In this document: positions 40,312-60,495 of the stretch, piece by piece
How positions within the stretch are numbered: the stretch's first letter is position 1
Layout of the letters: every line of letters starts with the position of its first letter
From: an uncultured bacterium
GTDB taxonomy: Bacteria > Eisenbacteria > RBG-16-71-46 > JABDJR01 > JAWXBZ01
Assembly (NCBI GenBank): GCA_964596775.1
Contig: CAZQVN010000012.1
Span: forward strand, 19,023-83,022
Direction of reading: 5' to 3'
Length of the DNA: 64,000 bases
Position numbers and translations under genes: made by a program
The notes under the pieces: generated by a model
What the model was told of the DNA's origin: nothing
Database searches by the model: none
What the model saw: the letters and a program-made list of their open reading frames with translations, nothing else

Positions 40312-40453
40312 ATGAGTTCCATCGCTTTCAGGAGGAATGTCGTGTCGGGGGCCGAGGCCCCGGTGGAAAGAGCGCGGGAAGCTTAACACAGGAAGGGGCA
40401 CATTCCGGAAGCCCGGGGCGGGGACCGTCCTCCGGAAGCGGCGAAATGATGTT

Positions 40454-42826: not shown

Positions 42827-42902
42827 TCCTCCTCGGTTTGCGGGGTCGGGTTTCCGATCCGAGTGTAGGACAGGAGCGCGGCGGGGTCCAGAATCGACGG
42901 GA

Positions 42903-45900
42903 TCAGCGACCGGCGGAAGGCAGGAGCGACCCGCGCGGAACCTCCACGTCGATCCGTGTGATGCCGCCGTCGCGACCCAGCAGAGAGGCGCTCTCGACGG
43001 GAGTGAGAGCGTCGCCGGGGCGTTCCGAGACGCCGTTCGTGCCGGTCACGCGGATGGACGGTCCCCTGCCCGTTCGTGTGTAAACGACCGGCACACCGGC
43101 GAACGTGAACGCCAGGGCACCTCCCGGCGGGAGGTCGATCCCCTGCTCCTCCCCCTCCAGGTCGACGTAGTCGAAGCGGTCTCCGCCCGCGGCAAACTCG
43201 CTGTCGCGGAGCAGCACCGGTCGAAAGCGGACGATCCCCCGGCTGACGAAGACGCCGAGTTCGCCGAACCGGGTGAGGATCTCCTCCTTGACCTGGCCGG
43301 TCATTCCCGGCTGCTGGGCCCCGGCGTGACCGGGCGTGTGCGAGTAAGGGTCGGTGGGAAACGCGCCGTACTCCGTCGGCGTCTTTTCGAATCCGAGGCC
43401 GGCGCGGATCCGGTAGTAGTACACGGCCAGCGTGTCGAACGCTTCGCCGGTTGCGCCCGAGTCCGCCGCGCGGAGCAGGATCTCCTGCACGGCGAGAAGC
43501 AGCTTGGCGACCATGTGCCAGTAGATGCAGCCGAGCCCCTCGTATCCGTACATCGTGCCGGAGCGGCCGGTCCACCTGTCGTGCCGGAACACCCGCTCGA
43601 ACAGGTCGAGGACCGGCTGTCGGTCCCTCGCCACGAGCGCCGCCCAGTTCGGCCGCTCGGCAATGCGGTCCAGCGCCAGCCCGACGTCGGCGGCGCGACC
43701 GATGTCCGGGGCGAAACGGACGACGTCCGCGGACTCCCGGACGACCAGCGTTTCGTCGCCCGAGTCGACGAGGCTGCGGAGGAGCGGGCTCGCCAGGACC
43801 GCGTCCGCGGCCATGCGGTTCTTCTCGAGAAAACCGGGGAGGTCGCGAAACGGATAGAGAAGGAAGCTCCCCTGGTCGGCCCGGTACATGCGGCTCGCGA
43901 ACAGCGCGGCGAGGATGTCCGCCGCCTCCTCCGGGGTCATGATTCCCGAACTCAGCACGGCCACCTGCCCCTCGAGCATCTCGTACAGGGGCTCAACGGA
44001 CAGCGACCGGCCGTCCGGCGCGAAGCGCAGCAGGGAGTAGGCCTGATACAGACCGTCGTCGCGCCGGGCGCCCCGGATCGTCGCATCGAGGTGCTCGAGG
44101 ACCCTCCGGCAGAAGGCGACGATCCCGTCGACCGGCACGTCGACGCGCCCGGACATCCCCCCGTCGTACACCCGGGTCCGGTACTCGTGATACACACCGC
44201 CGACCGCGTCGAGGAAACGCCGGCGCTTCGCGTCCGGATCGTCTTCCCCGCCGGGCTCCGCCGGCGCCCCGGGCGGACACGACATGGCGTCCGGGGAGTG
44301 CCCGGCGAATGCCTCCGCGATCCCCCGGTACCAGTCCGCCACCTCCGTACTCAGCGCGACGGAACTCCGCCCGGCCCCTGCGGCCAGGTCGGCCAGGCAT
44401 TCCATGTACCGGCGGAGATGGCAGAGCGTCACCATCGACACGCCGTTCCCCACCAGCGCGTTGTTCGCGTCGTTCCACTCCGGCCGCTGCGTGTTCATCC
44501 AGATGCCGCCGCCCGGAACATGATTGGACAGGCGCGCGAGGGCGGTGACGAGCAGCTTTTCGAACAGGCTGACGTGGTGCACCCGTCCGGCGGCATCGAG
44601 AACGAGCTTGCCGTCGGTGCCGAGTGCCGCGACCCGCTCATCGATCCGGGCGGCCAGCGCCGCGTCGAAATCGATCGTTTCGCGCGGATTCCGCACCATC
44701 TCCGCGTAGGAGCGGAGCCGGTAGGGCACGTTCGTGTAGCTGCAGATCTCGCGGAACAGGCTCGCGCCGAGCCCCTCGGGAGAAACGCGCCGCATCATCT
44801 CGATGAACCGGAGCAGGTACACGACCTGGTGATCCCCCCAGTAGCCGATGTGGCTCCAGGGATCGCGGGAGTCGGGGACCTCCCAGTCCACGCCGTCCCG
44901 GGTGACCCGGTACGGGTTGAAACCGTCCATCGTGGATGCGTTCACGAACCGGGCGATCATCCCCGGGAGAAAACCGGGATAGCCGAGGGCGAGCGCCTCC
45001 CAGTTCTGGAAGATGTCGCGCCAGTTCCCTTCGTAACCGAGGGCCCGCTCCCCCGCCGCGTTCTTCGTGCGGATCGCGAAGCGGTTCCACGGGCGGCTCG
45101 GGTCGCCGTGGCGGCGCCCGAACCAGAGCGGCAGGTACTCCCGGCAGAGGCGTTCGAGATCGGGATCCCCGACGGCCGCGGCGCGCCTCTCGAGGTCCGC
45201 CACCGACAGGAGCGGGGGCAGGGATTTCAGAAAGGACTCGTGGCGCCGGGCCGTGTCCCGGTTGCGCTCCCGGATCACGTCGCGGAGATCCGAGGCGGGA
45301 ATGTCATGGTTCCGCACGAAGGCACCGCCACGCATCGTGTTGAACAGCACGTTGGCACAGTGATGCGCGGACTCCTCGGCTCGGGCGGTGCACTGCAGGG
45401 CGTCGGCGGCGGCGATGATCTTCCGGAGCGATGCCCCGGCCGCGCGGATCCGGCCTTCCGTATCCCCGGCCGCATCGTCGCCGTCGAGAAGGCGGCGGGA
45501 CAGCTCCCCGATCTGCCGGGCATCCCGGCCGGTGTCCGCGACGATATGCCAGGTGGCGGACGCGCCCGGCGCGAGGCGCAGCGACGCGGCGGCAAGGTAG
45601 TGACCGCGGCGTCCGGTCACCAGCGTTTCCGGGGCCACGCTCCCTCCGGCCAGGAACGCGTCGATGGCCCCGGTCGACAGGGCCACCGTGGCCCCGGGCA
45701 ATCCGCGGACGTGCACCGTGGCGGCGCGCAGGACCTCGGCCGCCTCCACCCGGTCGGTGATCCGCGACGTCAGGGAGTAGATCGCGAGTCCCGTGCGGGG
45801 ATCGCACTCGGTGCGCTTGTACGCATCGACGAGGCAGCTGGACTGCTGGTACAGGGCGAGCGGCGCCCCGAACGGCAGTATGTTCCGGAGCCCGTCGAGC

Positions 45901-46424
45901 AGTTCGACACGCAGCGGGGTTTCCCCGGTGTTCTCGAGGACGGCGGTCCGAACGATGCCGAGGGCGTCACAGAGGGCCCAGCGGTAACGGAAGGACAGCC
46001 CGAGGCCGGGATGGATCGCCTCGAAGATCAGCTGCGTTCCGAAGATGTTCTTGTAGAGATTGCGCTTCACGGACTCGTCGCCCCACGCGCGTTCGGGAAA
46101 CGGCTGCCAGAGCGTCTCGCCGCCGGTCCCGCGTTTCACCCGGAGCAGCGTGATCGGCCCGGTATGGTGATGGCCGTCCATGAGGCGGTCCGCGGTTTCA
46201 TAGGGGAACAGGGCGCCGTCGGGTCCGACGCGACCGGCGGTGAGGCCGCCGCTCGACGCGACGAACATCCAGAGGTCGCTGTCCCCGGCCAGGGTCATCA
46301 GGAACGGCGGCATCCGGTCGTGACGGGAGATCCGGTAGAACAGCTCCCCGTCGATCTCCGTGAAGGCCCCGCGCGGGGCGTCGGCGGCGGCGCCCCGGTT
46401 CGCTTCGTGCGGAGAGCGGATCAC
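42903..46424 (-). CDS. Large cytoplasmic protein, candidate GH94/GH149/GH161-like (clan GH-Q) beta-glucan phosphorylase
   Basis: GTG 46424 overlaps the upstream stop as GTGA. About 1170 aa with no signal peptide. QRPEWNDANNALVGNG resembles the catalytic (G)DWND motif of GH94 phosphorylases. The size matches beta-1,3-glucan phosphorylases. The context is GH16, GH1 and an oligosaccharide importer. The 130-codon track extension was discarded. The family call is tentative. Confidence 0.5.
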   Translation of the reverse strand: MIRSPHEANRGAAADAPRGAFTEIDGELFYRISRHDRMPPFLMTLAGDSDLWMFVASSGGLTAGRVGPDGALFPYETADRLMDGHHHTGPITLLRVKRGTGGETLWQPFPERAWGDESVKRNLYKNIFGTQLIFEAIHPGLGLSFRYRWALCDALGIVRTAVLENTGETPLRVELLDGLRNILPFGAPLALYQQSSCLVDAYKRTECDPRTGLAIYSLTSRITDRVEAAEVLRAATVHVRGLPGATVALSTGAIDAFLAGGSVAPETLVTGRRGHYLAAASLRLAPGASATWHIVADTGRDARQIGELSRRLLDGDDAAGDTEGRIRAAGASLRKIIAAADALQCTARAEESAHHCANVLFNTMRGGAFVRNHDIPASDLRDVIRERNRDTARRHESFLKSLPPLLSVADLERRAAAVGDPDLERLCREYLPLWFGRRHGDPSRPWNRFAIRTKNAAGERALGYEGNWRDIFQNWEALALGYPGFLPGMIARFVNASTMDGFNPYRVTRDGVDWEVPDSRDPWSHIGYWGDHQVVYLLRFIEMMRRVSPEGLGASLFREICSYTNVPYRLRSYAEMVRNPRETIDFDAALAARIDERVAALGTDGKLVLDAAGRVHHVSLFEKLLVTALARLSNHVPGGGIWMNTQRPEWNDANNALVGNGVSMVTLCHLRRYMECLADLAAGAGRSSVALSTEVADWYRGIAEAFAGHSPDAMSCPPGAPAEPGGEDDPDAKRRRFLDAVGGVYHEYRTRVYDGGMSGRVDVPVDGIVAFCRRVLEHLDATIRGARRDDGLYQAYSLLRFAPDGRSLSVEPLYEMLEGQVAVLSSGIMTPEEAADILAALFASRMYRADQGSFLLYPFRDLPGFLEKNRMAADAVLASPLLRSLVDSGDETLVVRESADVVRFAPDIGRAADVGLALDRIAERPNWAALVARDRQPVLDLFERVFRHDRWTGRSGTMYGYEGLGCIYWHMVAKLLLAVQEILLRAADSGATGEAFDTLAVYYYRIRAGLGFEKTPTEYGAFPTDPYSHTPGHAGAQQPGMTGQVKEEILTRFGELGVFVSRGIVRFRPVLLRDSEFAAGGDRFDYVDLEGEEQGIDLPPGGALAFTFAGVPVVYTRTGRGPSIRVTGTNGVSERPGDALTPVESASLLGRDGGITRIDVEVPRGSLLPSAGR

Positions 46425-48037
46425 TTGAGAAGGACGATGCGCCGGGTTTCCACGGCCGGTCCCGACCGGAAGCGCAGCATGTAGATGCCGGAAGCGAGAC
46501 GGCGACCGGCATCGTCCCTGCCGTTCCAGACGGCTTCGTGCTCGCCGCGGTCGTACGGGCCGTCCGCGAGAACGCGAATCCGGCGCCCGGCGAGATCGTG
46601 GACGGTCACCTCGGCGTGCCCCGCCTCGCGCATCCGCCAGCGCAGCGTCGTGCCCGCGCTGAACGGGTTGGGACTGGGCGGGAGGAGCGCCGGGATGCGG
46701 CCGGCGGCCGGGGGTTCCTCGGGAACCGCCACGACGGAACCGTGCGGAATGAAGTTGAACCCGGAGAGGATCACTTCCTGGTTGGATGCCGGAGCCCCGG
46801 TGATGCGCCACAAGTTGATATGCACCCGCGGCTGTTCAGGGCGCGGGATGTGGGCTCCGGCATAAGTCCAGGAATGTATGAGCGAGCCCGGAGATTCGTC
46901 CCCGGGACCGCCGCGCCAGCTCCGGTACTCCACCTTGTCGGGGAGCCAGCGGAACGCGTGACTCGTGATCTCGCCGTTGCCGAACGTGGCGGCGAAGCGG
47001 CTGATGTTGGCCGGGCCGTCGAAAGGCTGGGCCACGAACTGGCCGATGCTGTTGGCCGGATTGCCCCAGCGGCTGAACTCCACGTCGATTTCGTTGAACG
47101 GGTTCCACCAGAGCCAGGCGGGATCCCAGCAGTGGCCGTACTGCCAGAGAAACAGGCCGAGAACGACCTGCGGGTCGATCAGGTCGAGGCGCCCTTCGGT
47201 CGTGAAGATGTAATCGCCGTAGCCGAGGGCGTCCACGAGCGCCACCTCGGTGCTGTACCAGGATCCGCCGATGTTCTTCACGGTGACGTGCAGGCGCCCC
47301 TGGGGGTCGACCCAGACGGAACCGGAGCCGTCGCTGAACAGGTTCGGGCCGGGACCGTAGTAGCCGGGACCCTTGACCCGCCACGTCCGGCCGCCGAACG
47401 ACAGCGTCCTGCCGCCCGGAAAATCGTTCCACTGGATGGCGGCCAGGGAGGGCGACGTCTTGTGAAATTCCGCGGTGTCGAAGTAGACGTCGGGCACGGA
47501 GGTCCCGGGAGCCTGCAGCACGCCGAGCATCAGGCGGACGGCCACCGTCCCCGACGGAGCCGGACCGCTGGTGACCGTGAATTCCTGGACCTGGCCGGTC
47601 GGCGTGGCCGCGCCTGCCACCGTGTGGGATTCGTAGCTGATGAGCACGCCGCTGGAATTCCGCCACTCGATGTTGAGGATGGCCGCCGACTGGCCGGTCA
47701 GCGGCCTGACGGCGGTATGCCAGCCGTCGACGGACGCGATCCAGCGGTCGCCGGGCACGGAGGCCAGCTGCTGCCAGTAACCGGACACATCCCATCCCCC
47801 GGCGTTCGGGCCGGTGAGGCGGGCGGCTTTCGACCCGTGAACGGCGTTCGGGGAGGACCCGACGCTGCCGAACTGGTTCCATCCGCCGAACACCGTGCCG
47901 GACCCGACGACTTCAAAGCTGGGATTGGCCAGCAGGCACTGCGCTGCGGCCCGCGGGGCGCCGGCCGCAGCAGACAGAACAAGGATCGCACTCAGCGCCG
48001 CGGCGAGGCGGACGATGCCCGGGTTCCCCCTCTTCAA
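46421..48037 (-). CDS. Secreted CBM4_9-like + GH16-like (ExDxE) module protein with T9SS-type C-terminal domain
   Basis: Signal peptide. N-terminal CLLANPSFEVVGSG...GGWN CBM4_9-like module. Central FNEIDVEFSRWG resembles the GH16/XET DEIDFEF active site. The C-terminal ~75 aa (HAEVTVHDLAGRRIRVLADG...GIYMLRF...RIVLLK) matches the tail of the C25 peptidases. Confidence 0.65.
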   Translation of the reverse strand: MKRGNPGIVRLAAALSAILVLSAAAGAPRAAAQCLLANPSFEVVGSGTVFGGWNQFGSVGSSPNAVHGSKAARLTGPNAGGWDVSGYWQQLASVPGDRWIASVDGWHTAVRPLTGQSAAILNIEWRNSSGVLISYESHTVAGAATPTGQVQEFTVTSGPAPSGTVAVRLMLGVLQAPGTSVPDVYFDTAEFHKTSPSLAAIQWNDFPGGRTLSFGGRTWRVKGPGYYGPGPNLFSDGSGSVWVDPQGRLHVTVKNIGGSWYSTEVALVDALGYGDYIFTTEGRLDLIDPQVVLGLFLWQYGHCWDPAWLWWNPFNEIDVEFSRWGNPANSIGQFVAQPFDGPANISRFAATFGNGEITSHAFRWLPDKVEYRSWRGGPGDESPGSLIHSWTYAGAHIPRPEQPRVHINLWRITGAPASNQEVILSGFNFIPHGSVVAVPEEPPAAGRIPALLPPSPNPFSAGTTLRWRMREAGHAEVTVHDLAGRRIRVLADGPYDRGEHEAVWNGRDDAGRRLASGIYMLRFRSGPAVETRRIVLLK

Positions 48038-49446
48038 TCGACCAGCACCATGGTGCGGGACAACCGGCCGCCGGACGTGGTCATGACGTAGCGGTAGATG
48101 CCCGCGGCCGCGCGCGACCCGGCGTCCGTTTCGCCGTTCCAGAGAACGGAGTGCGATCCGCCGTCCATCCGCCCGTCGAGCAGCGTGGCCACCCGGCGTC
48201 CGGCGACGTCGAACACGGAGAGGCGGACGTCATCGGCCCCGTCGAGGCTGAACTCGATCCGGGTGGACGGGCTGAACGGATTCGGACTGTTCTGGCCGAG
48301 CCGGAACGCCACCGGCGGCGTCGTGATCGGCGCGGCGGTGGGATCCACGGAACGGAACGAAAGATCATCCACCCAGACTGCTCCGCCCATCAGCGTCGGC
48401 GAGATGAACAGGATGAACGCCTCCACCGTGGCCGTGCCGGCCGGAGCGATCCCCTGGGTGGCGTGATGCGCCCATTTTCCGAGCGGCGCCTTGTTGTCGG
48501 CGACGACCGTCTCGACCGATCCGACCTCGTCCCCGATCCCGTTGCGGAACACGATGCGGGCCACGGCATAGTTGTCGTTCGTTCCGGCGATCGGGTCCTC
48601 GCGGCAGGTCACGAGCGCGTGCGCGTCCATCCGCCAGGCCGATCCGGGCGCCGCGGCAAACGACTGGAACAGGCCGGACGGCGCATCGGCGACGAACGTG
48701 GAAAACAGCTTGGCGCTTCCGGCCGGCGTCCGCACGGTGAAATTCCGCGCATCGTAGAACACGTTGCCGAACGTGGACCATCCGGACAGCCCGCCGCTGA
48801 AGGACGGGTTCGCGAGCACGTTGGGCAGCGAGGCCGGCAGCGTCTCGCAGAAATTCACGTCGTCGAGGTACACGGCTCCGGGGTCGCAGCCGGGCTGCAG
48901 GAAGAGAAACAGGGCCTCGACGCGCAGGGCGCCGGCCGGGACCGGCGCGGAAACCGTGAAGTGGTGCCACTTGTTGATCGGAGTCGAGTAGTCGCCGATG
49001 ACCACCTCGCTCGCGGAGATTTCCGATCCTCCCGAAGCCATGTTGAAGAAAACGATCTTGGCGATCATGCGGTTGCGGTTGCAGGTGTCCGTACCCGGGA
49101 TCGGATCGGCACCGGACACGAACGAGTAACCGCTCAGCTCGTAGACGCGACCGGACGTCGGCGTGAAGGCCTGCCCGAATCCGCCGACCCGGTAGCCGGG
49201 CGTTCCGGGGCATCCGGTGAACTCGCCGAACGTCTTGGACGCGGCGGTTCCGGAGCGGAAGATGTTGTCGCCGGGTGTGGGCAGGGACAGATTGGGGCCG
49301 CTGCCGAACTTGAACCAGCCGGTGTACGAACCTCCCCCGGTTTCAAACCCGGGATTGGCCAGGAGATTGACGCCGGCGGAAGCGGGCGCGGCCGCGAGGA
49401 ACGCCAGCACTGCGCCCATGCCGGCGGCGATAAGGAATCTCTTCAT
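48034..49446 (-). CDS. Secreted tandem CBM4_9-like carbohydrate-binding protein with T9SS-type C-terminal domain
   Basis: ATG 49446 (GGGAGG 7 nt upstream). MKRFLIAAGMGAVLAFLAAAPASA signal. Two repeats start NLLANPGFETGGGSYTGW and NVLANPSFSGGLSGW. C-terminal NPFSPSTRIEFSL...GIYRYVM...RTMVLVD tail. Confidence 0.65.
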   Translation of the reverse strand: MKRFLIAAGMGAVLAFLAAAPASAGVNLLANPGFETGGGSYTGWFKFGSGPNLSLPTPGDNIFRSGTAASKTFGEFTGCPGTPGYRVGGFGQAFTPTSGRVYELSGYSFVSGADPIPGTDTCNRNRMIAKIVFFNMASGGSEISASEVVIGDYSTPINKWHHFTVSAPVPAGALRVEALFLFLQPGCDPGAVYLDDVNFCETLPASLPNVLANPSFSGGLSGWSTFGNVFYDARNFTVRTPAGSAKLFSTFVADAPSGLFQSFAAAPGSAWRMDAHALVTCREDPIAGTNDNYAVARIVFRNGIGDEVGSVETVVADNKAPLGKWAHHATQGIAPAGTATVEAFILFISPTLMGGAVWVDDLSFRSVDPTAAPITTPPVAFRLGQNSPNPFSPSTRIEFSLDGADDVRLSVFDVAGRRVATLLDGRMDGGSHSVLWNGETDAGSRAAAGIYRYVMTTSGGRLSRTMVLVD

Positions 49447-49540: not shown

Positions 49541-49552
49541 AGTGTGGTCGCC

Positions 49553-49628: not shown

Positions 49629-50516
49629 GTGACCACCCACACTGGAGTCGACACTCCGCCGCTGCTCGAAGTCCGGGACCTCCGCAAGGAGTTCGTCTCG
49701 AAGGGGCTTTTCAAGCCGGAACGCCGGATTGTCGCCGCCGACAACGTGTCCTTCCGGATCGAGCGCGGCGAGGCCCTGGCCCTCGTGGGGGAGTCGGGCA
49801 GCGGCAAGAGCACGGTGGCCCGGATACTCCTCCGGCTGCTCGAACCGGACGGCGGCTCCATCCTGCTCGACGGAATCGACGTTCTGGCCCGGGAACCGCG
49901 GGGGGCCTCGCTCGGCTACCGCGGACGCGTCCAGATGGTGTTCCAGGACCCGTTCGGCTCGCTGAACTCCGTGCATACCATCCTGCACCACCTCGAGAGG
50001 CCGCTGATCCGGCACGGCCGGACCGGAGCCACGAACCCGTCGCAGACGGTGTCACGGCACGTGGAACGACCGATGAAGCGGCACGGTCGCGGCGCCTCCG
50101 CGGACATCCGGGCACGCGCGCTGGAACTGCTGTCCATCGTCGGCCTTGATCCCGCGGCCGAGTTCATCGACCGGTACCCCTACGAGCTGTCCGGCGGGCA
50201 GCGCCAGCGCGTGGCCATTGCGCGGGCCCTGGCCGTGGAACCCGACCTCCTCGTGGCCGACGAGCCCACTTCCATGCTCGATGTGTCCATCCGCATGGAC
50301 ATCCTGAACCTTCTCGCCCGGCTGAAACGGGACCGGGGGCTGGCCATACTGCTGATCACTCATGACCTGGCCTCGGCACGCTACCTCGCGGAGCGGATCA
50401 TGGTCCTCTACCGCGGACGGATCGTCGAGGAAGGCGCGGCCGCCTCCATCGTGAACGCACCCACCCACCCCTACACGGTGTCCCTTCTCGAGGCGATCGC
50501 CGGAGCGTCGGCGTGA
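49629..50516 (+). CDS. ABC transporter ATP-binding protein (OppF/DppF-like)
   Basis: GTG 49629 with GGGAG 7 nt upstream. Walker A GESGSGKST, signature LSGGQRQR, Walker B LLVADEPTSMLD, H-loop ITHDL. Confidence 0.85.
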   Translation: MTTHTGVDTPPLLEVRDLRKEFVSKGLFKPERRIVAADNVSFRIERGEALALVGESGSGKSTVARILLRLLEPDGGSILLDGIDVLAREPRGASLGYRGRVQMVFQDPFGSLNSVHTILHHLERPLIRHGRTGATNPSQTVSRHVERPMKRHGRGASADIRARALELLSIVGLDPAAEFIDRYPYELSGGQRQRVAIARALAVEPDLLVADEPTSMLDVSIRMDILNLLARLKRDRGLAILLITHDLASARYLAERIMVLYRGRIVEEGAAASIVNAPTHPYTVSLLEAIAGASA

Positions 50517-51919
50517 CCCGGCGCCGGTTTCCCGAGGGCTTTCTCTGGGGGGCGGCCACGTCCGCGCCGCAGATCGAAGGAAGTCCCGACGCCGGGGGGC
50601 GCGGCGAGTCGATCTGGGACCGGTTTGCCGCCACGCCCGGCCGCATCGAGGACGGTTCGGACGCCCGGGTCGCCTGCGATCACTACAACCGCTGGCGCGC
50701 CGACATCGGCCTGATGCGCTGGCTGGGGATCGGCGCGTACCGGTTCTCCATCGCCTGGCCGCGCGTCCTTCCGAACGGTGACGGCGCGGTCAACGAACGC
50801 GGGCTCGACTTCTACGACCAGCTCGTGGACGGCCTGCTCGAGGCCGGGATCGACCCGTTCGTGACGCTCTATCACTGGGATCTCCCCCAGGCACTCGAGG
50901 ACCGGGGGGGCTGGGGCAACCGCGACACCGTGGACGCCTTCACGGCGTATGCCGAGGCGGTCGTGGCCCGCCTCGGCGACCGGGTGCGGAACTGGACCAC
51001 CCACAACGAGCCGTGGTGCATTGCCGCGCTCGGACACGAGGAGGGGGTCCACGCGCCGGGGCACAAGGATCCGGCCCTTTCGCTCTCGGTGGCGCATCAC
51101 CTGCTGCTCTCGCACGGCCGCGCGGTCGAACTCATCCGGGCCCGCCGCCCCGACGCCCGCGCCGGAATCGTCCTGAACCTGACCCCGGCCCATCCGGAAA
51201 CGGAAGGCTCCGCGCGAGACATCGACGCGGCCCGCCAGTTCGACGGACTCTTCAACCGCTGGTACCTCGATCCCCTGTTTCACGGCCGCTACCCGGCGGA
51301 CGCCGTCAACGACCGGGTGCGTTACGGCCATCTCGAGGATCACGATCTTCCGTTCGTGCTGCCGGGAGACATGGACGAGATCCGGACTCCGCTCGATTTC
51401 CTCGGCATCAACTACTACAGCCGCGTCGTCGTCCGCGCCGGAGACGACGGACGCCCCCGGGCCGTTCCCGGAGCGCCGGCCGAGGAACTGACCGACATGG
51501 GCTGGGAGGTGTATCCGCAGGCGCTCGACCCCCTCCTCGTCCGGATCCACGAGGAGTACGGCCCTCCGGAGATCTGCATCACGGAAAACGGGGCCGCCTA
51601 CACCGACGCCCGCGACGAGCACGGGCGGGTCATCGACCGGCGCCGCATCGAGTACTTCCGCGGACACCTTGCCGCGGCGCACCGGGCGATCGAGGCCGGC
51701 GTGCCGCTGTCCGGATACTTTGCCTGGTCGCTGCTCGACAATTTCGAATGGGCGCACGGTTACGCAAGGCGGTTCGGCCTGTTCGACGTGAACTACAGCA
51801 CGCAGGAACGCGCGGCGAAGGAAAGCGCGTTCTGGTACCGCGACGTGATCGCCGGAAACGGGTTCGACGACCGACCCGCGTCCCGCCGCGCCGAACACTC
51901 TTCGAGGAGGTTCCCTTGA
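50513..51919 (+). CDS. GH1 family beta-glucosidase
   Basis: GTGA overlap with the upstream stop. N-terminal FPEGFLWGAATSAPQIEG. Acid/base TTHNEPW. Nucleophile ICITENGAAY. 468 aa. Confidence 0.9.
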   Translation: MTRRRFPEGFLWGAATSAPQIEGSPDAGGRGESIWDRFAATPGRIEDGSDARVACDHYNRWRADIGLMRWLGIGAYRFSIAWPRVLPNGDGAVNERGLDFYDQLVDGLLEAGIDPFVTLYHWDLPQALEDRGGWGNRDTVDAFTAYAEAVVARLGDRVRNWTTHNEPWCIAALGHEEGVHAPGHKDPALSLSVAHHLLLSHGRAVELIRARRPDARAGIVLNLTPAHPETEGSARDIDAARQFDGLFNRWYLDPLFHGRYPADAVNDRVRYGHLEDHDLPFVLPGDMDEIRTPLDFLGINYYSRVVVRAGDDGRPRAVPGAPAEELTDMGWEVYPQALDPLLVRIHEEYGPPEICITENGAAYTDARDEHGRVIDRRRIEYFRGHLAAAHRAIEAGVPLSGYFAWSLLDNFEWAHGYARRFGLFDVNYSTQERAAKESAFWYRDVIAGNGFDDRPASRRAEHSSRRFP

Positions 51920-54900
51920 GCTTCATCCGGACAGGATCTGCCGGCGGCCGCGCGATGCTGGCCGCCATGGTGATGACGACACTGCTGGCGGCGGCCCCGG
52001 CCTCCTCGGCCGAGGACAGCGCATCCGCCGCGGTTGCGAAGGTGGCGGTGGTCACCGACGGCCAGGGAAGCCGGATCCAGGTCGACGGCCGGGACATGAT
52101 GATCTACGGCATGAACTGGGACTGCTTCCCCGTCGGCACGAACTACACGTTCGACCTCTGGTCGCAGCCGGACGCGATCATCGAGGAGATGCTGGCCCGC
52201 GACATGCCGCTCCTCCGGGAAATGGGGGTCAACGCCATCCGGCTCTACGTGGGCGTCCCCCCCCGCTGGGTCCGGTTCATGTACGAGCGCTACGGCATCT
52301 ACACGATCCTCAACCACCCGATGGCCCGCTACGGCTTTCTCCTCGACGGCGTCTGGGTGGCATCGGTGGATTACGCGGACGAACGACTGCGCGAGGCGGT
52401 CAAGGCCGAGATCCTGGCGGTCGTCGAGGAGTTCCGGGACACGCCGGGCGTGCTGATGTGGCTGCTCGGCAACGAGAACAACTACGGGCTCACCTGGACG
52501 TCCGCGGAAACCGAGGCGCTTCCGGAAGGGGAGCGGGACGGAGCACGGGCCCGCAAGCTCTATTCGCTGTTCAACGAGGTGACGAAGGGGGTCAAGGCCC
52601 TCGACCCGAACCGCCCGGTGGCCATCGCCAACGGCGACGTCCAGTACATCGACATCATCGCCGAGGAGTGCACGGACATCGACGTCTTCGGCACGAACGT
52701 CTACCGCGGTCTCTCGGCGCGCGACCTCTTCCAGGTCGTCAAGGACAAGCTCGGCGTTCCGGTGTTGTTCACGGAGTTCGGAGCCGACGCGTTCAACGCC
52801 CGCGAGATGCGCGAAGACCAGGAGACGCAGTGCCGCTATCTCGTCGCCCAGTGGGAGGAGATCTACGAGCAGTCGAGCGGCAAGGGTCGGGTCGGCAACG
52901 CCGTCGGCGGCCTCGTCTTCCAGTGGACGGACGGCTGGTGGAAGTACAAGCAGGAGGAGCGGCTGGACGTGCACGACACGAACGCGTCCTGGCCGAATGC
53001 CGGTTACCCCGAGGACTACGTGGCCGGCGCGAACAACATGAACGAGGAGTGGTGGGGCATCACCGCGAAGGGGCCGACGGAGCTCAACGGCCTGTACAAG
53101 GTCTATCCGCGGGCCGCCTACTACGCGCTCAAGAGGGCGTTTTCCCTCCCGGCCTACGCGCCGGGCACGGACATCGAGGCGATCCGGGATCACTTCCGCA
53201 CGATCTCCGCCGCGGCGGCCGCTCTCGAGGCCCGCGGTGACCGCGCGGCCCTCGTGGCCGAGCAGCTGTCGCGCGTCCGCCTGTCCGGGCTCCGCCTCGA
53301 GTTCGAAACGTATTCGACCGGCGGCACCGGCATCACCACGCCCGAGGCATCGGGCGGCGCCGGCGGGGCCTACCCCTCGTTCCGGGGTTTCGACCAGATG
53401 CAGTCGTTTTATGCCGCACTCGAGGCGAAGCCGGCGGAAAACGTCACCGGGACGGTCACGATGAACGTGCTCGGCAGCGTCCCGGCCAATCCGATCGACG
53501 AGATCTTCTATGAAAACCGCGGGAGGCCGGTCAGCGTGGAAACCGGCGGGACGCAGGCGCTCGCGCTCGAGGACATCGAGCGGGTCAAGGTGTACCAGGC
53601 CGGCGTGTCCTGGGACGACACCCACTTCCTGCTCGACGGGTTCTACCGCACCGGTCACCTGCACTGGGCGTACGAAGGCGATTTCTTCGGCCTGTACCGC
53701 GAGGCGTACTACGGCGACAACATCGACATCTACAACGGCGTGGCCCCGGTCGGCCTGGAGTTGACCGGCAAGCGGCAGTTTTCGGGCCTCAAGCTGGCCA
53801 TGGGACCGGAGCTCTGGTGGGGCGCGAACCCGGCGGTGTTCCTGAAATACAACCGGCAGATCGGGTCGATCGCGGCCACCGGCATCTACCAGGAGGACAT
53901 CGCCGAGAAGTCGGGAGCGGCCAGCTCCACCGCCATTCCGGTGCCGCCGACGCGGAAGGCCACGCTGCAGCTGGCCACGCGGCGCGGCCTGTTCGGCCTC
54001 GAAGTCGGAGGCATCTGGTCCGGCCAGACGAAGGTCGGCGACCCGTTCGAGGTCGTCGACGACACCGGAGACGGCACCCTCCTGCTCCAGGACGAGGTGA
54101 AGGGCTCCGACGCCTTCGGAGCCAAGGCCAAGCTGACGTTCCAGAAGGGGCGCTGGAACTGGTACGGACAGGCCGCGTACATGGGCGTCGTGGCGGACGC
54201 GGGCCCGACGACGATTCCCACGTTCACCGGATGGACGCTCAAGGACTCGGGCTCCGGCAACCAGGCCAACGTCCTGACCGGCCTGGCCGTGAACATGGGC
54301 CATTTCCAGGTGGCGCCGAACTTTCTCTACCAGAAGCCGCTCGTCGGCCCGCTCCCCTTCGATCCGGACGGGCGGTTCTTCGCCCGCAACGTCATCGACG
54401 ATCCGTTCGCGGTGCGCGGCAACCGGGAAACCGTGGGCACGGAGCTCCTGTTCACGTTCGATCCGACGCCGGCCACCTGGTTCTGGATGTGGGACAATGA
54501 CGTGCGCGAGGACGCCCGTTTCGCGGCGAGCCTGGGCTGGACGCTGCGCCACCTGCCGACGACGCAGGACGGGGCGCTCTACGTGTCGGCGGACGGCATC
54601 ACGTTTCCGTTCCTGTCGGCCACGCCCCCGCGCGACCTCTGGGAGGTCAGGAGCCGCATCGTGTCCCGCATGAGCCCGACCACCCGCCTGGTGGCCCACA
54701 TCTACGGGGGGACCGCGGAGCCGAACGGCGACGACCCGCGGCTCCTCAAGCGGTTCGGCGCCGATGCGCGGCTGGCGGTCGAGTCGATCGCGTTCGAGAC
54801 GTTCGTCAAGATCAACGACTTCGGTCCGTACGACTACCATCGCGACTTCAACCTGACGTTTCCGGTCCAGCTGATGGGCGACCTCTCGCACACGCTCGGA

Positions 54901-55053
54901 AACCCGCGCTGGTTCAACTTCGCGCAGACGAAACTCGGCGTCCGGGGCACGTGGAGATCGCTCGACGATTTCTCGCCGCGCTACGCGCCGGAACTCGGCA
55001 CGACGAAGAGCAACGAGTGGGAGATCCGGACCTACCTGCACCTGGGGCTGTAG
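51916..55053 (+). CDS. Secreted clan GH-A TIM-barrel glycoside hydrolase fused to a ~700-aa C-terminal beta-rich domain (possible outer-membrane beta-barrel), 1046 aa
   Basis: TTG 51916 (AGGAGG 5 nt upstream) overlaps the GH1 stop as TTGA. Signal peptide MSFIRTGSAGGRAMLAAMVMTTLLAAAPASSA. Catalytic-pair pattern WLLGNENNYG (acid/base NE) and VLFTEFGADAF (nucleophile E). The C-terminal half is Gly/Tyr/Trp/Thr-rich with alternating hydrophobic patterns and ends ...WEIRTYLHLGL. The earlier part of the track ORF (51013..51915) is an out-of-frame overlap with the GH1 gene and was discarded. Confidence 0.6.
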   Translation: MSFIRTGSAGGRAMLAAMVMTTLLAAAPASSAEDSASAAVAKVAVVTDGQGSRIQVDGRDMMIYGMNWDCFPVGTNYTFDLWSQPDAIIEEMLARDMPLLREMGVNAIRLYVGVPPRWVRFMYERYGIYTILNHPMARYGFLLDGVWVASVDYADERLREAVKAEILAVVEEFRDTPGVLMWLLGNENNYGLTWTSAETEALPEGERDGARARKLYSLFNEVTKGVKALDPNRPVAIANGDVQYIDIIAEECTDIDVFGTNVYRGLSARDLFQVVKDKLGVPVLFTEFGADAFNAREMREDQETQCRYLVAQWEEIYEQSSGKGRVGNAVGGLVFQWTDGWWKYKQEERLDVHDTNASWPNAGYPEDYVAGANNMNEEWWGITAKGPTELNGLYKVYPRAAYYALKRAFSLPAYAPGTDIEAIRDHFRTISAAAAALEARGDRAALVAEQLSRVRLSGLRLEFETYSTGGTGITTPEASGGAGGAYPSFRGFDQMQSFYAALEAKPAENVTGTVTMNVLGSVPANPIDEIFYENRGRPVSVETGGTQALALEDIERVKVYQAGVSWDDTHFLLDGFYRTGHLHWAYEGDFFGLYREAYYGDNIDIYNGVAPVGLELTGKRQFSGLKLAMGPELWWGANPAVFLKYNRQIGSIAATGIYQEDIAEKSGAASSTAIPVPPTRKATLQLATRRGLFGLEVGGIWSGQTKVGDPFEVVDDTGDGTLLLQDEVKGSDAFGAKAKLTFQKGRWNWYGQAAYMGVVADAGPTTIPTFTGWTLKDSGSGNQANVLTGLAVNMGHFQVAPNFLYQKPLVGPLPFDPDGRFFARNVIDDPFAVRGNRETVGTELLFTFDPTPATWFWMWDNDVREDARFAASLGWTLRHLPTTQDGALYVSADGITFPFLSATPPRDLWEVRSRIVSRMSPTTRLVAHIYGGTAEPNGDDPRLLKRFGADARLAVESIAFETFVKINDFGPYDYHRDFNLTFPVQLMGDLSHTLGNPRWFNFAQTKLGVRGTWRSLDDFSPRYAPELGTTKSNEWEIRTYLHLGL

Positions 55054-55091: not shown

Positions 55092-56060
55092 TCAGCGCTC
55101 CGGCGCCTCCGCCACATGGCACGCCGCGGCGTGACCGGTACCGAACGTGCGCAGCTCCGGCCGCGACTCGCGGCAGCGCTCCTCGACCAGCGGGCAGCGC
55201 GGGTGAAAACGGCAGCCGGCCGGCGGGTTCACGAGCGACGGGGGTGAGCCGGGAATGCTCACCGGCACCACGTCTCCCTTGACCGAAGGAAACGCCTGGA
55301 GCAGTCCCTTCGTGTACGGGTGGTGCGGCTCCTTCCGGAGCGCCGCCACCGGCCCGACCTCCACGAGGCGGGCGGCGTAGAACACGGCCACCCGGTCCGA
55401 CACCGACAGCATCCGGGCCAGGTCGTGGGTGATGAACATCACCGCGAAGCCGACCTCCTTCTGCAGGGCGCGGATCCGGTTGAGGATGTCCCGCTCGACG
55501 ACGACGTCGAGCGCGGTGGTCGGCTCGTCGAGGATCACCAGCGACGGCCTGAGCGCCAGCGCCAGCGCGATCCCCACCCGCTGCCGCATCCCCCCCGACA
55601 GCTGGTGGGCGTACGCGTCCAGCCGGTCCACGGGGATGTCGACCATGTCCAGCAGTTCGCGGGCCCGGGCGCGGGCGGCGCCGCCGGACGACACTCCGTG
55701 CGCCTCCAGCGTGTCCACGATCTGTTCGCCGACGGTGATGACCGGGTTCAGCGCATCCATGGCGCTCTGGAAGACCATCGAGATCCGGTTCCAGCGGATG
55801 GCCCGGAGTCCCGCTTCATCGAGGTCGAGAATGTTCTTCCCCTCGAACCGCACCGTGCCGCCGGAGATCACCGCGGGCGGCGGAAGGATGCGCATCACCG
55901 CCTGGGCCAGCGTGGACTTTCCGCTCCCCGACTCCCCGGCCACGCCGAGGATCTCGCCGGGCAGGAGATCCAGCGACAGGTCGTCGATGGCGCGCACCGG
56001 CCCCCGGTCGGTGATGTAGTCCACGTTCAGCCCGCGGATCGACAGGAGCGGCTCAGCCAC
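55092..56060 (-). CDS. ABC transporter ATP-binding protein (OppD/DppD-like, with C-terminal oligopeptide-ABC extension)
   Basis: Walker A GESGSGKST, signature LSGGMRQR, Walker B LVILDEPTTALD, ITHDL. C-terminal CxxHPRC Cys motif typical of the OppD family. Confidence 0.85.
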   Translation of the reverse strand: MAEPLLSIRGLNVDYITDRGPVRAIDDLSLDLLPGEILGVAGESGSGKSTLAQAVMRILPPPAVISGGTVRFEGKNILDLDEAGLRAIRWNRISMVFQSAMDALNPVITVGEQIVDTLEAHGVSSGGAARARARELLDMVDIPVDRLDAYAHQLSGGMRQRVGIALALALRPSLVILDEPTTALDVVVERDILNRIRALQKEVGFAVMFITHDLARMLSVSDRVAVFYAARLVEVGPVAALRKEPHHPYTKGLLQAFPSVKGDVVPVSIPGSPPSLVNPPAGCRFHPRCPLVEERCRESRPELRTFGTGHAAACHVAEAPER

Positions 56061-56988
56061 GATCCACCACCACCGGCGTCGAGCGCGACGGCTCCTGCCC
56101 GCGCTTCCTGAGCCACGCTCCCCACGCCCGCTCCAGCTGCAGGCGCGGGTTCGTGATCTCGTCGAAACCCGAGTTCAGCATCGTCAGCGCGAACCCGACG
56201 AGCGCCACGCAGAACCCGGTCGGCGCGAACGTCCACCACGCGCCGGTCAGCAGCGCGGAATCGTTCTGCGCCCAGTAGAGATTCGTGCCCCAGGTCACCG
56301 AGGACACGTCGCCGAGGCCGAGATACTCGAGGCCGACCTGGGCGCCGATGGCGTACACGGTGCTGCCGATCACCTGGGCGACGATGAGGCTCGTCATCGT
56401 GGGGAGGATCTCGCGGGTGATGATGCGGAAGTTCGACTCCCCGGTGACGATCGCCGCGGCGACGAAATCGCGGCGCCGCTGGGCCAGCGTCTGGGCCCGC
56501 ATCACGCGGGCGTTCCAGGCCCAGCCGGTGACCACGAGAACGAGGCCGAGCGTCAGCGGCCCGGACGGCAGGTAGGCCGCGATCACGATGGCCAGGGGAA
56601 GGCCGGGAATGACCAGGAACACGTTGAACAGCAGCGACAGGAGCCCGTCGACCCGCCCGCCGAAGTATCCGGCGGCGACGCCGATGAGCGCCCCGATCAG
56701 GACCACGATCAGGCCGACGCTGAAGCCGAGCAGGAGCGACGTCCGGGTGCCGGCCACGAGCTGGGCCAGCACGTCCTGCCCCTGCCCGGTCGTGCCGAGC
56801 CAGTGCTCCGCGGACGGGGGCGACAGCGGAATGCCGACCAGCGCGCCGGGGTCGCCGACGAACAGCGGGCCGAACGCGGCGATCAGGACGAACACGAGGA
56901 GGATCGCGGCGCCGATCGACGCCTTCCGGTCGCGGCGGATCGCCTGCAGCCACGACCCGATGCCGGTGGCCTTCGCGGAGCCGGTCAT
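56053..56988 (-). CDS. ABC transporter permease (OppC/DppC-like)
   Basis: ATG 56988 overlaps the upstream stop as ATGA. About 6 TM segments. The ABC permease EAA-like region ...AAIVTGESNFRIITREILP... is present. The upstream part of the track ORF is R/G-rich and was trimmed. Confidence 0.8.
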   Translation of the reverse strand: MTGSAKATGIGSWLQAIRRDRKASIGAAILLVFVLIAAFGPLFVGDPGALVGIPLSPPSAEHWLGTTGQGQDVLAQLVAGTRTSLLLGFSVGLIVVLIGALIGVAAGYFGGRVDGLLSLLFNVFLVIPGLPLAIVIAAYLPSGPLTLGLVLVVTGWAWNARVMRAQTLAQRRRDFVAAAIVTGESNFRIITREILPTMTSLIVAQVIGSTVYAIGAQVGLEYLGLGDVSSVTWGTNLYWAQNDSALLTGAWWTFAPTGFCVALVGFALTMLNSGFDEITNPRLQLERAWGAWLRKRGQEPSRSTPVVVDRG

Positions 56989-57968
56989 TCGCCGGAATCC
57001 CGGGTGCGGGGATCGAGCCAGATGTAGACCATGTCGACGAGCCAGTTCGCGCCGAGCACCGCGAGCGTGATCACGAGGAAGATCCCCTGCATCAGCGGAT
57101 AGTCCTGGTTCCGCACCGCCTGGACCAGCAGGTAGCCCTGGCCGGGATAGGAAAAGACGATCTCGGTGAGCAGCGACCCGCCGAGCACGTAGCCGAGCGC
57201 CATGCCGAAGCCGGTGACGGAGGGAAGCAGCGCGTTCCGGGCCGCGTAGCGCAGGACGACCCGCGACGGGGACAGCCCCTTGGCCCGGGCCAGGTTCACG
57301 TAGTCGGCGGAGAGAACGGTGATCATCGTGTTGCGCATCGACAGGAGCCAGCCGCCCAGGGTGACGAGGACGACGGTGCCCACCGGGAGCGCGGCGTGGC
57401 GGACCACGTCGGCGAGGAACACCGCCGAGAACCCGGGCGTCAGGTCGTCGCCGTAGGCGTGGCCGAGCGGAAACCACCCGAGCGTGAAACCGAACACGTA
57501 GAGCGCCACCATCGCCAGCCAGAAGTAGGGAAACGCGCCGACGAACACGAGGACCGGGGGCAGCACCGTGTCCAGCCAGCCGCGCCGCCACCAGGCGGCG
57601 GCCACGCCGAGCAGCGTGCCGATCACGAAACTCAGCACGACCGCGGTGCCGGCCAGGAAGATCGTCCAGACGAGGCCCGACCCGATCACGTCGACCACCG
57701 GCGTCGGAAAGTAGGCCACCGAGATGCCGAGATCCCCCCTCAGCACATGGGCGAGATACTGGAAGTACTGTTTCCAGAGCGGAGCCTCGGTCAGGCCGAA
57801 TGTCTGCCGGAGGGCGTCCAGCGCCTCGGGCCCGAGGCGCCCCTTGAACCGCGCGAACAGCGCCGTGGCGGGGTCACCGGGCATGAGCCGCGGCAGGAAG
57901 AAGTTCAGGGTCAGCGCCGCCCAGGCGGCCACCAGGTAGAACCCGAGACGGCGGAGCAGAAACCTCAC
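56985..57968 (-). CDS. ABC transporter permease (OppB/DppB-like)
   Basis: GTG 57968 overlaps the SBP gene stop (GTGA). MRFLLRRLGFYLVAAWAALTLNFFLPRLMPGDP is the typical OppB N-terminus. Six TM segments. Confidence 0.8.
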   Translation of the reverse strand: MRFLLRRLGFYLVAAWAALTLNFFLPRLMPGDPATALFARFKGRLGPEALDALRQTFGLTEAPLWKQYFQYLAHVLRGDLGISVAYFPTPVVDVIGSGLVWTIFLAGTAVVLSFVIGTLLGVAAAWWRRGWLDTVLPPVLVFVGAFPYFWLAMVALYVFGFTLGWFPLGHAYGDDLTPGFSAVFLADVVRHAALPVGTVVLVTLGGWLLSMRNTMITVLSADYVNLARAKGLSPSRVVLRYAARNALLPSVTGFGMALGYVLGGSLLTEIVFSYPGQGYLLVQAVRNQDYPLMQGIFLVITLAVLGANWLVDMVYIWLDPRTRDSGE

Positions 57969-59646
57969 GGCGCCTCCGTCTTCGGCACGAGCGACGTGAG
58001 CACGAGCAGGCATTCCCCGCGGTCGAACTTGTTCGGGGACGGATCGGCGTACGGATTGTCGCGCGAGGGAAAGCCGTCGAACCGGCGCGTGTTGTACTCG
58101 GCCCACGACGGGTTCGGGTACAGCGGAATGGCCGGCACTTCGGCGGCGAAGACCGCCTGCAGGTTGTCGACGAGACGCCGCTGCTCCGCGGGGTCCGGCT
58201 CGCGCTCGAACGCCAGCAGCGCGGCATCCGCGGTCGGACTGCCGTAGCGGTGCCAGTTCGCGCCGGACACCTCGCCCGGCGGCTTGACCGTGGCGGTGGA
58301 CATCAGCGTGCGGTAGAAGATGTACGGCGTGGGGCCCTCGAAGGACCAGCCGAGCGTCAGGTCGAAGTTCCCCTCCTGGACGCGCTGGAACCAGGCGCCG
58401 AAGTCGTAGGTGCGGACGGTCGCGTCCACGCCCGCCTCCGCGAGGCCGCGGGCGATCACCTGCGCCGCGCGGACCCAGTCGGACCAGCCGGAGACGGTGA
58501 GGATTTCATACCGCCACGGCGTTCCGTCGGGCAGCGTGCGGAAACCGTCCGCCCCCCTCCGGTATCCCGCCGCGTCGAGGATCGCGTTGGCGCGCTCCAG
58601 ATCGTGACGCACCCAGTCCGCCGTATCCGCCACCGTCTCGTTCCGCCACGCGGAGTACGCGTCGGAGAGGGCCGTGGCATCGGCCGGCCGCGAGTAGCGG
58701 TAGCAGGCCACGTCGACGAGAAGGTCGCGGTCGATGGCCATGCTGAGCGCCTTGCGCACCTGGATGTCGTCGAACGGCGCCCGCGTCGTGTTCGCGTACA
58801 GGAAGACGGTGCTCCCGGTCAGCGGGAACCAGTAGTGGTGATCCTCGGGGTTGCGGTCGCGGTACACGCGCTCCACCGCGGGAATGAAGTTCCCGGCCCA
58901 GTCCACCTCGTCGAAGACGAGGGCGAGATTCGCCCGGTCGTTCGACGGGTAGGCCGGAAAGCGCAGCGCGTCGAAGCGCGGCACCCCGGGCTGCCAGTAG
59001 TGCGGATTGCGACCGAGCTCGAAGAACTGGTTCTTGAACACCCGGACTTCCGTGAACGGCCCGGTGGCCACCGGATTCTCGTTGGGGAAGGCCACCGGGT
59101 CCTCGATGAGGCTCCAGACGTGCTCCGGCACGATCTGCGAAGCAGCGACCTCGTCGAACCCGGGGATGTAGACCCGCTGGAACCGGAACTCCACGGTCGT
59201 GTCGTCGGGCGCCGAGACGCTCTCGAGAAAGCTCCACACGGCGCGGCGGTCCAGCGCCGGGTGCCGGCGCATCAGGTCGAACGTGAACGCCACGTCGGCG
59301 GCGCCGAACGCCTCCCCGTCCGACCAGCGAACGCCGCGGCGCGTCGTCAGGCGGAGCACCCGGTTGTCCTCCCGCCAGAGGTGCCCGGTGGCCAGCCAGG
59401 GCACCTGTTCCGAGGTGACGCTGTTGAAGACGAACAGCGGCTCGTACACGCCGGCCATGGTCGGCCAGCGCGCCGCCGAAGCGGTGGACAGCGGATTGAA
59501 GTTGCGGACCCAGGAGGCGTGCTGTTCCTGCGAGACGACCAGGACGCCCAGCGGAGGTTCCGGGGGCTTGCGCACGCAGGCCGGCCCGGCGAAGCCGAGC
59601 GCGATAAGGACGGCGAGAATCCGGCTCATTCCGCGGGCGGCCCGGT

Positions 59647-59650
<4 letters not shown>
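57965..59650 (-). CDS. ABC transporter substrate-binding lipoprotein, family 5 (Opp/Dpp-like; probable oligosaccharide binder by context)
   Basis: ATG 59650 overlaps the GH16 stop (ATGA). Lipobox LIALGFAGPAC. Family-5 SBP length (561 aa) and conserved ...YEPLF..., ...GTPWRYEIL... blocks. Confidence 0.8.

Positions 59651-60491
<841 letters not shown>

Positions 60492-60495
<4 letters not shown>

Follow-up and report, generated by a model that had tools for sequence, protein, structure and literature searches.

A predicted GH149 β-1,3-glucan phosphorylase in a laminarin-type gene cluster of an uncultured Eisenbacteria bacterium

The closest described systems to the one considered here are two phosphorylases of glycoside hydrolase (GH) family 149, EgP1 of Euglena gracilis and the bacterial enzyme Pro_7066, both of which phosphorolyse β-1,3-gluco-oligosaccharides down to glucose (PMC5827456, PMC6484121). 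Pro_7066 acts on G2 and G3 (PMC6484121) and makes products up to a degree of polymerisation (DP) of 11 in vitro, the reactions of GH149 being freely reversible (PMC5827456). The two enzymes are 45% identical and differ in their kinetics; the family has a link to paramylon, a storage glucan, in Euglena, and bacterial GH149 enzymes were concluded to degrade external β-1,3-glucan (PMC5827456). Bacterial gene clusters of the GH149 "Type I" carry an ATP-binding cassette (ABC) transporter set of COG0747/0601/1173/0444/4608 (PMC5827456). The present analysis concerns a large gene, and the genes around it, in a 64,000-nucleotide stretch of contig CAZQVN010000012.1 (positions 19,023 to 83,022, hereafter the window) from an uncultured bacterium of the Eisenbacteria lineage. 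The gene is placed as follows:

42903..46424, minus strand: predicted GH149 β-1,3-glucan phosphorylase gene, 1173 amino acids (aa), GTG start at 46424, TGA stop at 42905-42903, without signal peptide

Its product is very probably a cytoplasmic, inverting GH149 phosphorylase that acts on β-1,3-gluco-oligosaccharides within a laminarin-type utilisation cluster. A first-pass annotation of the window, made from the letters and open reading frames (ORFs), had proposed a long-form β-glucan phosphorylase of GH149/GH161 type with a GH94-like motif and had suggested comparisons with family profiles and known structures. The profile comparison was run in an equivalent form with the NCBIfam model NF058639, an equivalog for "1,3-beta-D-glucan phosphorylase, GH149 family" with a curated cut-off of 1150 bits, which matched the protein over its full length at 1389.8 bits (a margin of 240), aligning residues 18-1162 with profile positions 6-1133 of 1134. 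The best sequence match in the PDB is 6HQ6/6HQ8 (Pro_7066), which covers query residues 23-1164 with E=1.1e-289; counting from the alignments gives 41% identity across 1124 positions. An AlphaFold2 model from a shallow alignment of 30 sequences, with a mean predicted local distance difference test (pLDDT) score of 77.7 and a predicted template modelling (TM) score of 0.82, superposes on 6HQ8/6HQ6 in Foldseek with TM scores of 0.91/0.94 over 1156-1160 columns. Because this superposition spans ∼1156 columns, it takes in the two GH149-specific insert domains (domain list in PMC6771811), and the Dom1 and Dom2 regions show no large gaps in the alignment with Pro_7066. Phosphorylases of GH149, GH161, or GH94 and the phosphorylase domains of cyclic glucan synthases account for all of the top 37 Foldseek matches, and the model has the predicted (α/α)6 phosphorylase fold of clan GH-Q with an N-terminal β-sandwich.

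These comparisons support an ordinary full-length member of GH149, clan GH-Q, and the GH149 part of the earlier proposal stands (NF058639, 6HQ6), while its GH161 and GH94 parts do not. Membership of GH161 was rejected, since GH161 structures give a local sequence match only (E=1.9e-8, residues 527-675) and superpose with TM scores of 0.61-0.63 and 15-16% structural identity, far below the GH149 match. Membership of GH94 was also rejected: no GH94-type Pfam or NCBIfam model matches the protein at E≤0.01, TM scores are 0.44-0.57 (0.56-0.57 for the GH94 laminaribiose phosphorylase and 0.44-0.47 for cellobiose/chitobiose phosphorylases), GH94 structures overall are 10-14% identical to the protein, and what the two have in common is limited to the fold at clan level and the catalytic loop. 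A Pfam scan of the protein returned no family at E≤0.01, which is no evidence against GH149 membership because Pfam has no GH149 model.

The residues expected at the active site can be located by alignment with Pro_7066, in which W651/N652/D653 build the catalytic loop and D653 is predicted to be catalytic, R470-D471 recognise the sugar 1-phosphate, E951 contacts the −1 ligand, and H959 recognises phosphate (PMC6771811). The PDB chain numbering of Pro_7066 is offset by 19 from that of the paper and was corrected before the residues were mapped, giving the following positions:

44442..44489, minus strand: catalytic-loop motif QRPEWNDANNALVGNG, residues 646-661, identical to Pro_7066
44469-44477, minus strand: W650-N651-D652, with D652 the predicted general acid, aligned to W651/N652/D653 of Pro_7066
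45015..45020, minus strand: R469-D470 "RD" motif, predicted to recognise sugar 1-phosphate, aligned to R470-D471 of Pro_7066
43539-43541, minus strand: E962, predicted Glu of the −1 subsite, aligned to E951 of Pro_7066
43515-43517, minus strand: H970, predicted phosphate-recognising His, aligned to H959 of Pro_7066

None of these (W650-N651-D652, R469-D470, E962, and H970) varies when the protein is aligned with 29 homologues that are 52-60% identical; the mean column identity of that alignment is 67%. The motif QRPEWNDANNALVGNG sits in a 23-residue block identical to Pro_7066, so that the resemblance reflects homology and not chance. The likeness of EWND to the general-acid motif of GH94, from which the first-pass annotation had started, is thus borne out as a WND-type loop with a catalytic Asp common to clan members, and the Asp that it took as general acid is D652, which aligns with the predicted catalytic D653. 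The two things on which that proposal had been made to depend, similarity to clan GH-Q and an Asp equivalent in EWND, are both found. The protein also has peculiarities of its own: an 11-residue loop (714-724) is unique to it among its 29 nearest relatives, and it carries 12 substitutions at positions invariant in those relatives, none of them at the named active-site residues.

The call of the gene itself needs care in this DNA, where GC content is 64-72% throughout (∼68% overall) and long spurious ORFs lie on both strands. The GH149 frame has GC fractions of 0.72, 0.53, and 0.85 at the first, second, and third codon positions (GC1, GC2, and GC3), the signature typical of real genes here. A plus-strand ORF at 43326-46484 (1052 aa) was rejected by codon-position GC as a GC-rich antisense artefact. 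A longer variant of the gene starting at 46811 was rejected as well, because it would overlap by 390 nt the well-supported gene of a type IX secretion system (T9SS) protein (T9SSa, below), because homologues begin near residue 17-24, and because NCBI's own call for the exact same protein, which is already in NCBI on an 88.5-kb contig, is 1173 aa. The coordinates 42903-46424 were given correctly at the outset, with the minus strand left unstated and with a length of 1170 aa, in place of which the ORF translation and the NCBI call give 1173 aa. The N-terminus (VIRSPHEANRGAAADAPRGAFTEIDGE...) has no hydrophobic signal segment, in keeping with the earlier claim that a signal peptide is absent. The GTG start (46424-46422) overlaps the TGA (46423-46421) of T9SSa as GTGA, in the context "...ctcaaGTGAtcc", and this junction, together with TIGR04183 and FlgD_ig matches in T9SSa, upholds the overlap with an upstream T9SS-cargo gene that had been described.

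The genes around GH149 were resolved by GC3 frame analysis with Pfam and NCBIfam scans and form a cluster of ∼42.9-63.2 kb, which contains, in addition to the GH149 gene, the following features:

46421..48037, minus strand: T9SSa, 538 aa, with signal peptide, a jelly roll like those of carbohydrate-binding module (CBM) families 4/22, a cryptic GH16-like domain, and a T9SS C-terminal domain (TIGR04183, FlgD_ig, AlphaFold2/Foldseek)
48034..49446, minus strand: T9SSb, ∼470 aa from MKRF, with signal peptide, two tandem CBM-like jelly rolls, and a T9SS C-terminal domain (FlgD_ig match); stop overlaps the T9SSa start (TTGA)
49629..50516, plus strand: ABC transporter ATPase of Opp/Dpp type (Pfam ABC_tran), first gene of the divergent operon
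50513..51919, plus strand: GH1 β-glucosidase without signal peptide, hence cytoplasmic (PF00232, 530.7 bits)
51916..55053, plus strand: secreted clan GH-A TIM-barrel protein, GH158-like, 1045 aa (PF02836 GH2_C, 37.5 bits; signal peptide)
55092..56060, minus strand: ABC ATPase with oligo_HPY domain (Pfam)
56053..56988, minus strand: ABC permease 2, OppC-like (BPD_transp_1 and OppC_N); ATGA overlap with permease 1
56985..57968, minus strand: ABC permease 1, OppB-like (BPD_transp_1, 135 bits); GTGA overlap with the solute-binding protein (SBP) gene
57965..59650, minus strand: family-5 solute-binding lipoprotein of COG0747 type (SBP_bac_5, 231.6 bits; lipobox)
59647..60495, minus strand: GH16 lipoprotein, 282 aa, with EIDIME catalytic motif (PF00722, 84.7 bits); start refined by GC3 frame analysis
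60492..61742, minus strand: ROK-family regulator with winged helix-turn-helix and ROK domains (PF00480, 182.2 bits, and MarR/HTH_24); stop overlaps the GH16 start (ATGA)
61799..63160, minus strand: 453-aa lipoprotein with weak CBM11/CBM4_9 similarity (CBM_11 E=2.8e-4, below cut-off; lipobox)

Three units can be distinguished among these genes. The first, on the minus strand, is T9SSb-T9SSa-GH149, with GH149 last and a 4-nt overlap of start and stop codons at each junction; the second is divergent on the plus strand and consists of the ABC ATPase, GH1, and GH158-like genes, again with a 4-nt overlap at each junction; and the third, on the minus strand, comprises the CBM-like lipoprotein, ROK, GH16, family-5 SBP (SBP5), two permeases, and the oligo_HPY ATPase, with mostly 4-nt overlaps. 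The window holds a complete Opp-type importer (SBP5, two permeases, and two ATPases) along with the GH158-like protein at 51916-55053, GH1, and ROK, and its ABC cassette is exactly that of the "Type I" GH149 clusters (PMC5827456). The GH16/GH1 context noted from the sequence is real for both genes, although the GH16 ORF of 668 aa was rejected as over-extended, since by GC3 frame analysis it hides the ROK gene in another frame and the true gene has 282 aa. The best PDB sequence match of the 51916-55053 protein is the GH158 structure 9oro at a marginal E=7e-4, and its product may be a large GH158-related β-1,3-glucanase with uncharacterised extra domains. The lipoprotein at 61799-63160 is a candidate surface glucan-binding protein of unknown family. 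By tblastn, no GH17 gene was found in the window, and window scans showed no glucan synthase; a scan of 42500-50000 for sigma-70 promoters and intrinsic terminators gave nothing above shuffled expectation.

On the other side of GH149, the minus strand carries a lipoprotein gene at 41660-42820 with a strong GAGGAGG ribosome-binding site, followed further downstream by genes at 40454-41659 (Big_5 protein), 38749-40713 (aldehyde dehydrogenase), and 36447-38741 (Ser/Thr kinase carrying TPR repeats). The genes of this 36447-42820 region (lipoprotein, Big_5, aldehyde dehydrogenase, and kinase) have no counterpart near GH149 in related loci, and the cluster is accordingly taken to end at 42903; the lipoprotein and the Big_5 protein have no homologues in any of 80 related loci.

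The two T9SS proteins encoded upstream of GH149 differ in content. T9SSa passes the cut-offs for TIGR04183 Por_Secre_tail (24.3 bits against 23) and FlgD_ig (33.1 against 27) and is on that ground a T9SS cargo, and a Pfam scan found nothing in it besides the C-terminal sorting domain even at E≤1, the GH16 model included. Its AlphaFold model (pLDDT 83) has three β-sandwich domains, of which the N-terminal one matches CBM4/CBM22/CBM16 modules in Foldseek and the middle one (∼205-431) matches GH16 lichenase/laminarinase folds, best 3i4i_B with E=7e-8 and target-normalised TM scores (TMt) of 0.66-0.70. In addition, E316-I-D318-V-E320 reads as the classical GH16 ExDxE catalytic motif and is invariant in the family; hhalign of the family against the GH16 of the window is weak (E=0.012) and places NEIDVE on GEIDIME. 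The fold and the motif together suggest that T9SSa would be a secreted protein with a CBM and a divergent GH16-like endo-β-glucanase domain. More than 760 proteins belong to the T9SSa family and have no Pfam domain apart from the sorting tail, and the family may represent a GH16-like subfamily not yet classified, which accompanies GH149 in Eisenbacteria, Krumholzibacteria, and Fibrobacteres. T9SSb has internal repeats that are 27-30% identical to the N-terminal domain of T9SSa and no catalytic motif, and it is probably a cell-surface glucan-binding protein. For T9SSb, the start of the longest ORF (49569) is likely not the true one, as its signal peptide starts with MKRF (49446).

Relatives of the GH149 protein are numerous. 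Of 8000 candidates scored in a protein search, 7990 matched at E≤1e-10; the nearest are 52-60% identical, with the named ones from metagenome-assembled genomes (MAGs) of Eisenbacteria, Krumholzibacteria, and Latescibacterota, and every named homologue among the best 120 matches is labelled "hypothetical protein". When counted as one genome per species, relatives occur in at least 588 species genomes from Eisenbacteria, Krumholzibacteriota, Planctomycetota, Fibrobacterota, Bacteroidota, Gammaproteobacteria, Verrucomicrobiota, Chloroflexota, and Gemmatimonadota and in one Brockarchaeota MAG. In the last, a Candidatus Brockarchaeota archaeon, a 46%-identical homologue lies on a 93-kb contig (L055, 10001-13366) and reflects horizontal transfer into archaea or else an error of binning. 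The earlier suggestion that a sparsely characterised family is carried into a new lineage by this protein was thus overstated, and the argument from a new lineage is weak, since MAGs of Eisenbacteria and Krumholzibacteria that contain the same cluster have already been made public.

Conservation of the neighbourhood was counted by tblastn of the window's neighbouring genes against 80 fetched GH149 loci. Near-complete synteny was found in two Eisenbacteria loci (L001 and L002), and across the 80 loci GH149 is adjoined by the GH158-like protein in 15 (Flavobacteriaceae included, at ∼52% identity), by GH16 in 11, by GH1 in 7, by T9SSa homologues in 6, and by the SBP5/permease pair in 6, with homologues of the 61799-63160 lipoprotein nearby in 9 loci from several phyla. 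The 49629-50516 ATPase has 62-67% identical homologues at the same position in L001, L002, and L081, and T9SSb homologues are present in the same three loci. The order in L081, which holds the closest homologue (60%), is ATPase, GH2_C-like, GH1, ATPase, FlgD_ig protein, GH17, GH149, and FlgD_ig protein; in L083, from Krumholzibacteria, GH16, SBP5, permeases, and an ATPase stand beside GH17 and GH149. GH17 lies directly upstream of GH149 in these closest relatives (L081, 8849-9997; L083, 8855-9937). T9SSa fills the GH17 position in the window, and in L001, L002, and L081 it is found downstream of GH149 on the opposite strand, that is, inverted. A literature search on Eisenbacteria and laminarin found no papers.

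From these parts, a catabolic route can be proposed. T9SSb, T9SSa, the GH16 lipoprotein, and the secreted GH158-like enzyme would bind and cut laminarin-type β-glucan outside the cell, and the family-5 SBP/Opp-type ABC system would import the resulting oligosaccharides. The GH149 enzyme would then phosphorolyse imported β-1,3 oligosaccharides from the non-reducing end and down to glucose, in the predicted reaction (Glc-β1,3)n + Pi → α-D-glucose 1-phosphate (α-Glc1P) + (Glc-β1,3)n-1, in which D652 in the WND loop would serve as general acid, while the −1 glucose would be held by R469/D470 and E962 and the phosphate by H970. The cytoplasmic GH1 would hydrolyse what is left over, such as residual or branched disaccharides, and the ROK regulator inside the cluster probably controls expression. 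One ATP would be saved for each glucose that enters glycolysis as Glc1P, and the energy-saving logic of phosphorolysis, which had been put forward at the outset, was judged to hold alongside the GH16/GH1 context.

Several points weigh against this assignment and the route built on it. The nearest characterised enzyme, Pro_7066, is only 41% identical, and the clade of the present protein has itself no characterised member. As no structure shows a ligand in GH149's acceptor (+1) subsite, the sequence does not tell which linkage or chain length is preferred. The protein does not keep the surface oligosaccharide site of Pro_7066 (E990/Y993/E994), reading V/Y/R instead; distant bacterial GH149s show poor conservation of this site (PMC6771811). 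The AlphaFold model of GH149 has its lowest confidence in the loops of the active site. At residues 441-470, 505-530, 647-658, 949-964, and 1028-1041, which are the most conserved active-site loops, pLDDT is below 50, and the scaffold is confident; it is possible that the active site is completed only in a homodimer or with ligand, or that the shallow 30-sequence alignment is responsible. Co-transcription and regulation of the cluster are suggested by the codon overlaps alone, and an outer-membrane route for the oligosaccharides was not identified in the window.

Three other explanations were considered and are taken in order of falling likelihood. The first, which has a small chance of being right, is that the protein is a true GH149 whose physiological substrate is something other than linear laminari-oligosaccharides, such as mixed-linkage β-1,3/1,4 oligosaccharides set free by the lichenase-like T9SSa, branched β-1,3/1,6 fragments, or another β-1,3-linked sugar. 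It draws on the co-translated T9SSa, whose ExDxE motif is bulge-free and whose best fold matches are lichenases, as well as on the distance from Pro_7066, the altered surface binding site, the clade-unique 11-aa loop 714-724, and the 12 substitutions at positions otherwise invariant, and EgP1 and Pro_7066 are already kinetically distinct at their own level of identity (PMC5827456). Set against these is the wide margin by which the equivalog NF058639 was passed, the identity of all −1 subsite and phosphate residues, and a neighbourhood of classical β-1,3-glucan enzymes, namely GH16 of the EIDIME type, the GH158-like protein, and, in relatives, GH17. Furthermore, lichenase products end in β-1,4 links at the non-reducing end, which makes them unsuited to a β-1,3-specific exo-phosphorylase and counts against a mixed-linkage substrate from this source.

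The second explanation is that the enzyme is mainly synthetic or acts on an endogenous polymer, and builds or recycles an intracellular β-1,3-glucan reserve from Glc1P instead of breaking down imported glucan. The reversibility of GH149, with Pro_7066 products up to DP 11, and the paramylon link of the family in Euglena would allow for this (PMC5827456), but the gene has as its neighbours secreted endo-glucanases, proteins that bind glycans, an ABC importer of oligosaccharides, and a β-glucosidase, no glucan synthase is shown in the window, and the founding paper reached a catabolic conclusion for the bacterial clusters (PMC5827456), so a synthetic role is very unlikely. The third, a pseudo-enzyme or a GH-Q hydrolase, is hardly credible: activity is assigned by homology and the loops are modelled with low confidence, but the frame is unbroken over the full length of the gene, the catalytic Asp, RD motif, Glu, and His have all been retained and do not vary among homologues, and the gene is conserved in syntenic clusters.

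On the preferred reading as a catabolic β-1,3-glucan phosphorylase, the protein joins a known, well-populated family of thousands of sequences as one more uncharacterised member; a naming model at NCBI, a solved crystal structure, and published analyses of its clusters already exist for the family, and no new mechanism is involved. Uncultured bacteria of the Eisenbacteria, within the FCB (Fibrobacterota-Chlorobiota-Bacteroidota) group, would carry a complete laminarin-type route of T9SS enzymes, an ABC importer, and phosphorolysis, a matter of relevance to the carbon cycle of soils and sediments. Annotation of GH149 in MAGs falls short systematically, and in many pipelines, because Pfam has no model and almost all homologues in public databases are labelled "hypothetical protein", and only the recent NCBIfam NF058639 names the family; the first-pass annotation, working from sequence only, recognised a clan GH-Q phosphorylase from a short motif, protein length, and gene context. 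The more interesting loose end is the neighbouring T9SS family with its cryptic GH16-like domain, which travels with GH149 in candidate phyla. There is an outside chance that the Eisenbacteria/Krumholzibacteria GH149 clade, whose members are at most 60% identical to this protein and 41% to Pro_7066 and do not have the surface site of the latter, and the unclassified T9SS CBM/GH16-like family to which it is genetically coupled form a distinct β-glucan system without SusC/D, in which case either the specificity of the phosphorylase (for instance for mixed-linkage or branched oligosaccharides) or the family of secreted enzymes would be new.

Among known systems, the GH94 enzymes (PsLBP, 6GGY/6GH3; 3QDE, 1V7V) resemble the present protein in their (α/α)6 phosphorylase fold and in having a catalytic Asp within a loop of WND type but lack Dom1 and Dom2 and have ∼800-900 aa. 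The GH161 enzymes (PapP; 9QQK, 9GY9, 9H8V) likewise belong to clan GH-Q, with a similar fold, the same substrate class, and clusters that include GH1 and ABC transporters, and they differ in that they cannot cleave laminaribiose (PMC6484121). EgP1, compared here by its description, is the founding member of GH149 and has the same reaction and active-site motifs (PMC5827456), whereas it is eukaryotic, tied to paramylon metabolism, and extended at the N-terminus. The likeness is closest to Pro_7066, with which the protein aligns end to end and has in common the four-domain architecture and two GH149-specific inserts, an identical catalytic WND loop, and the conserved RD motif, Glu, and His; both proteins are without a signal peptide and are encoded in β-glucan gene clusters. 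Pro_7066 is Flavobacteria-like, whereas the present protein comes from an Eisenbacteria-like FCB lineage with 68% GC, reads V/Y/R at E990/Y993/E994, and carries the extra 11-residue loop 714-724, and its gene is translationally coupled to that of a T9SS-secreted GH16-like protein instead of lying in a SusC/D polysaccharide utilisation locus.

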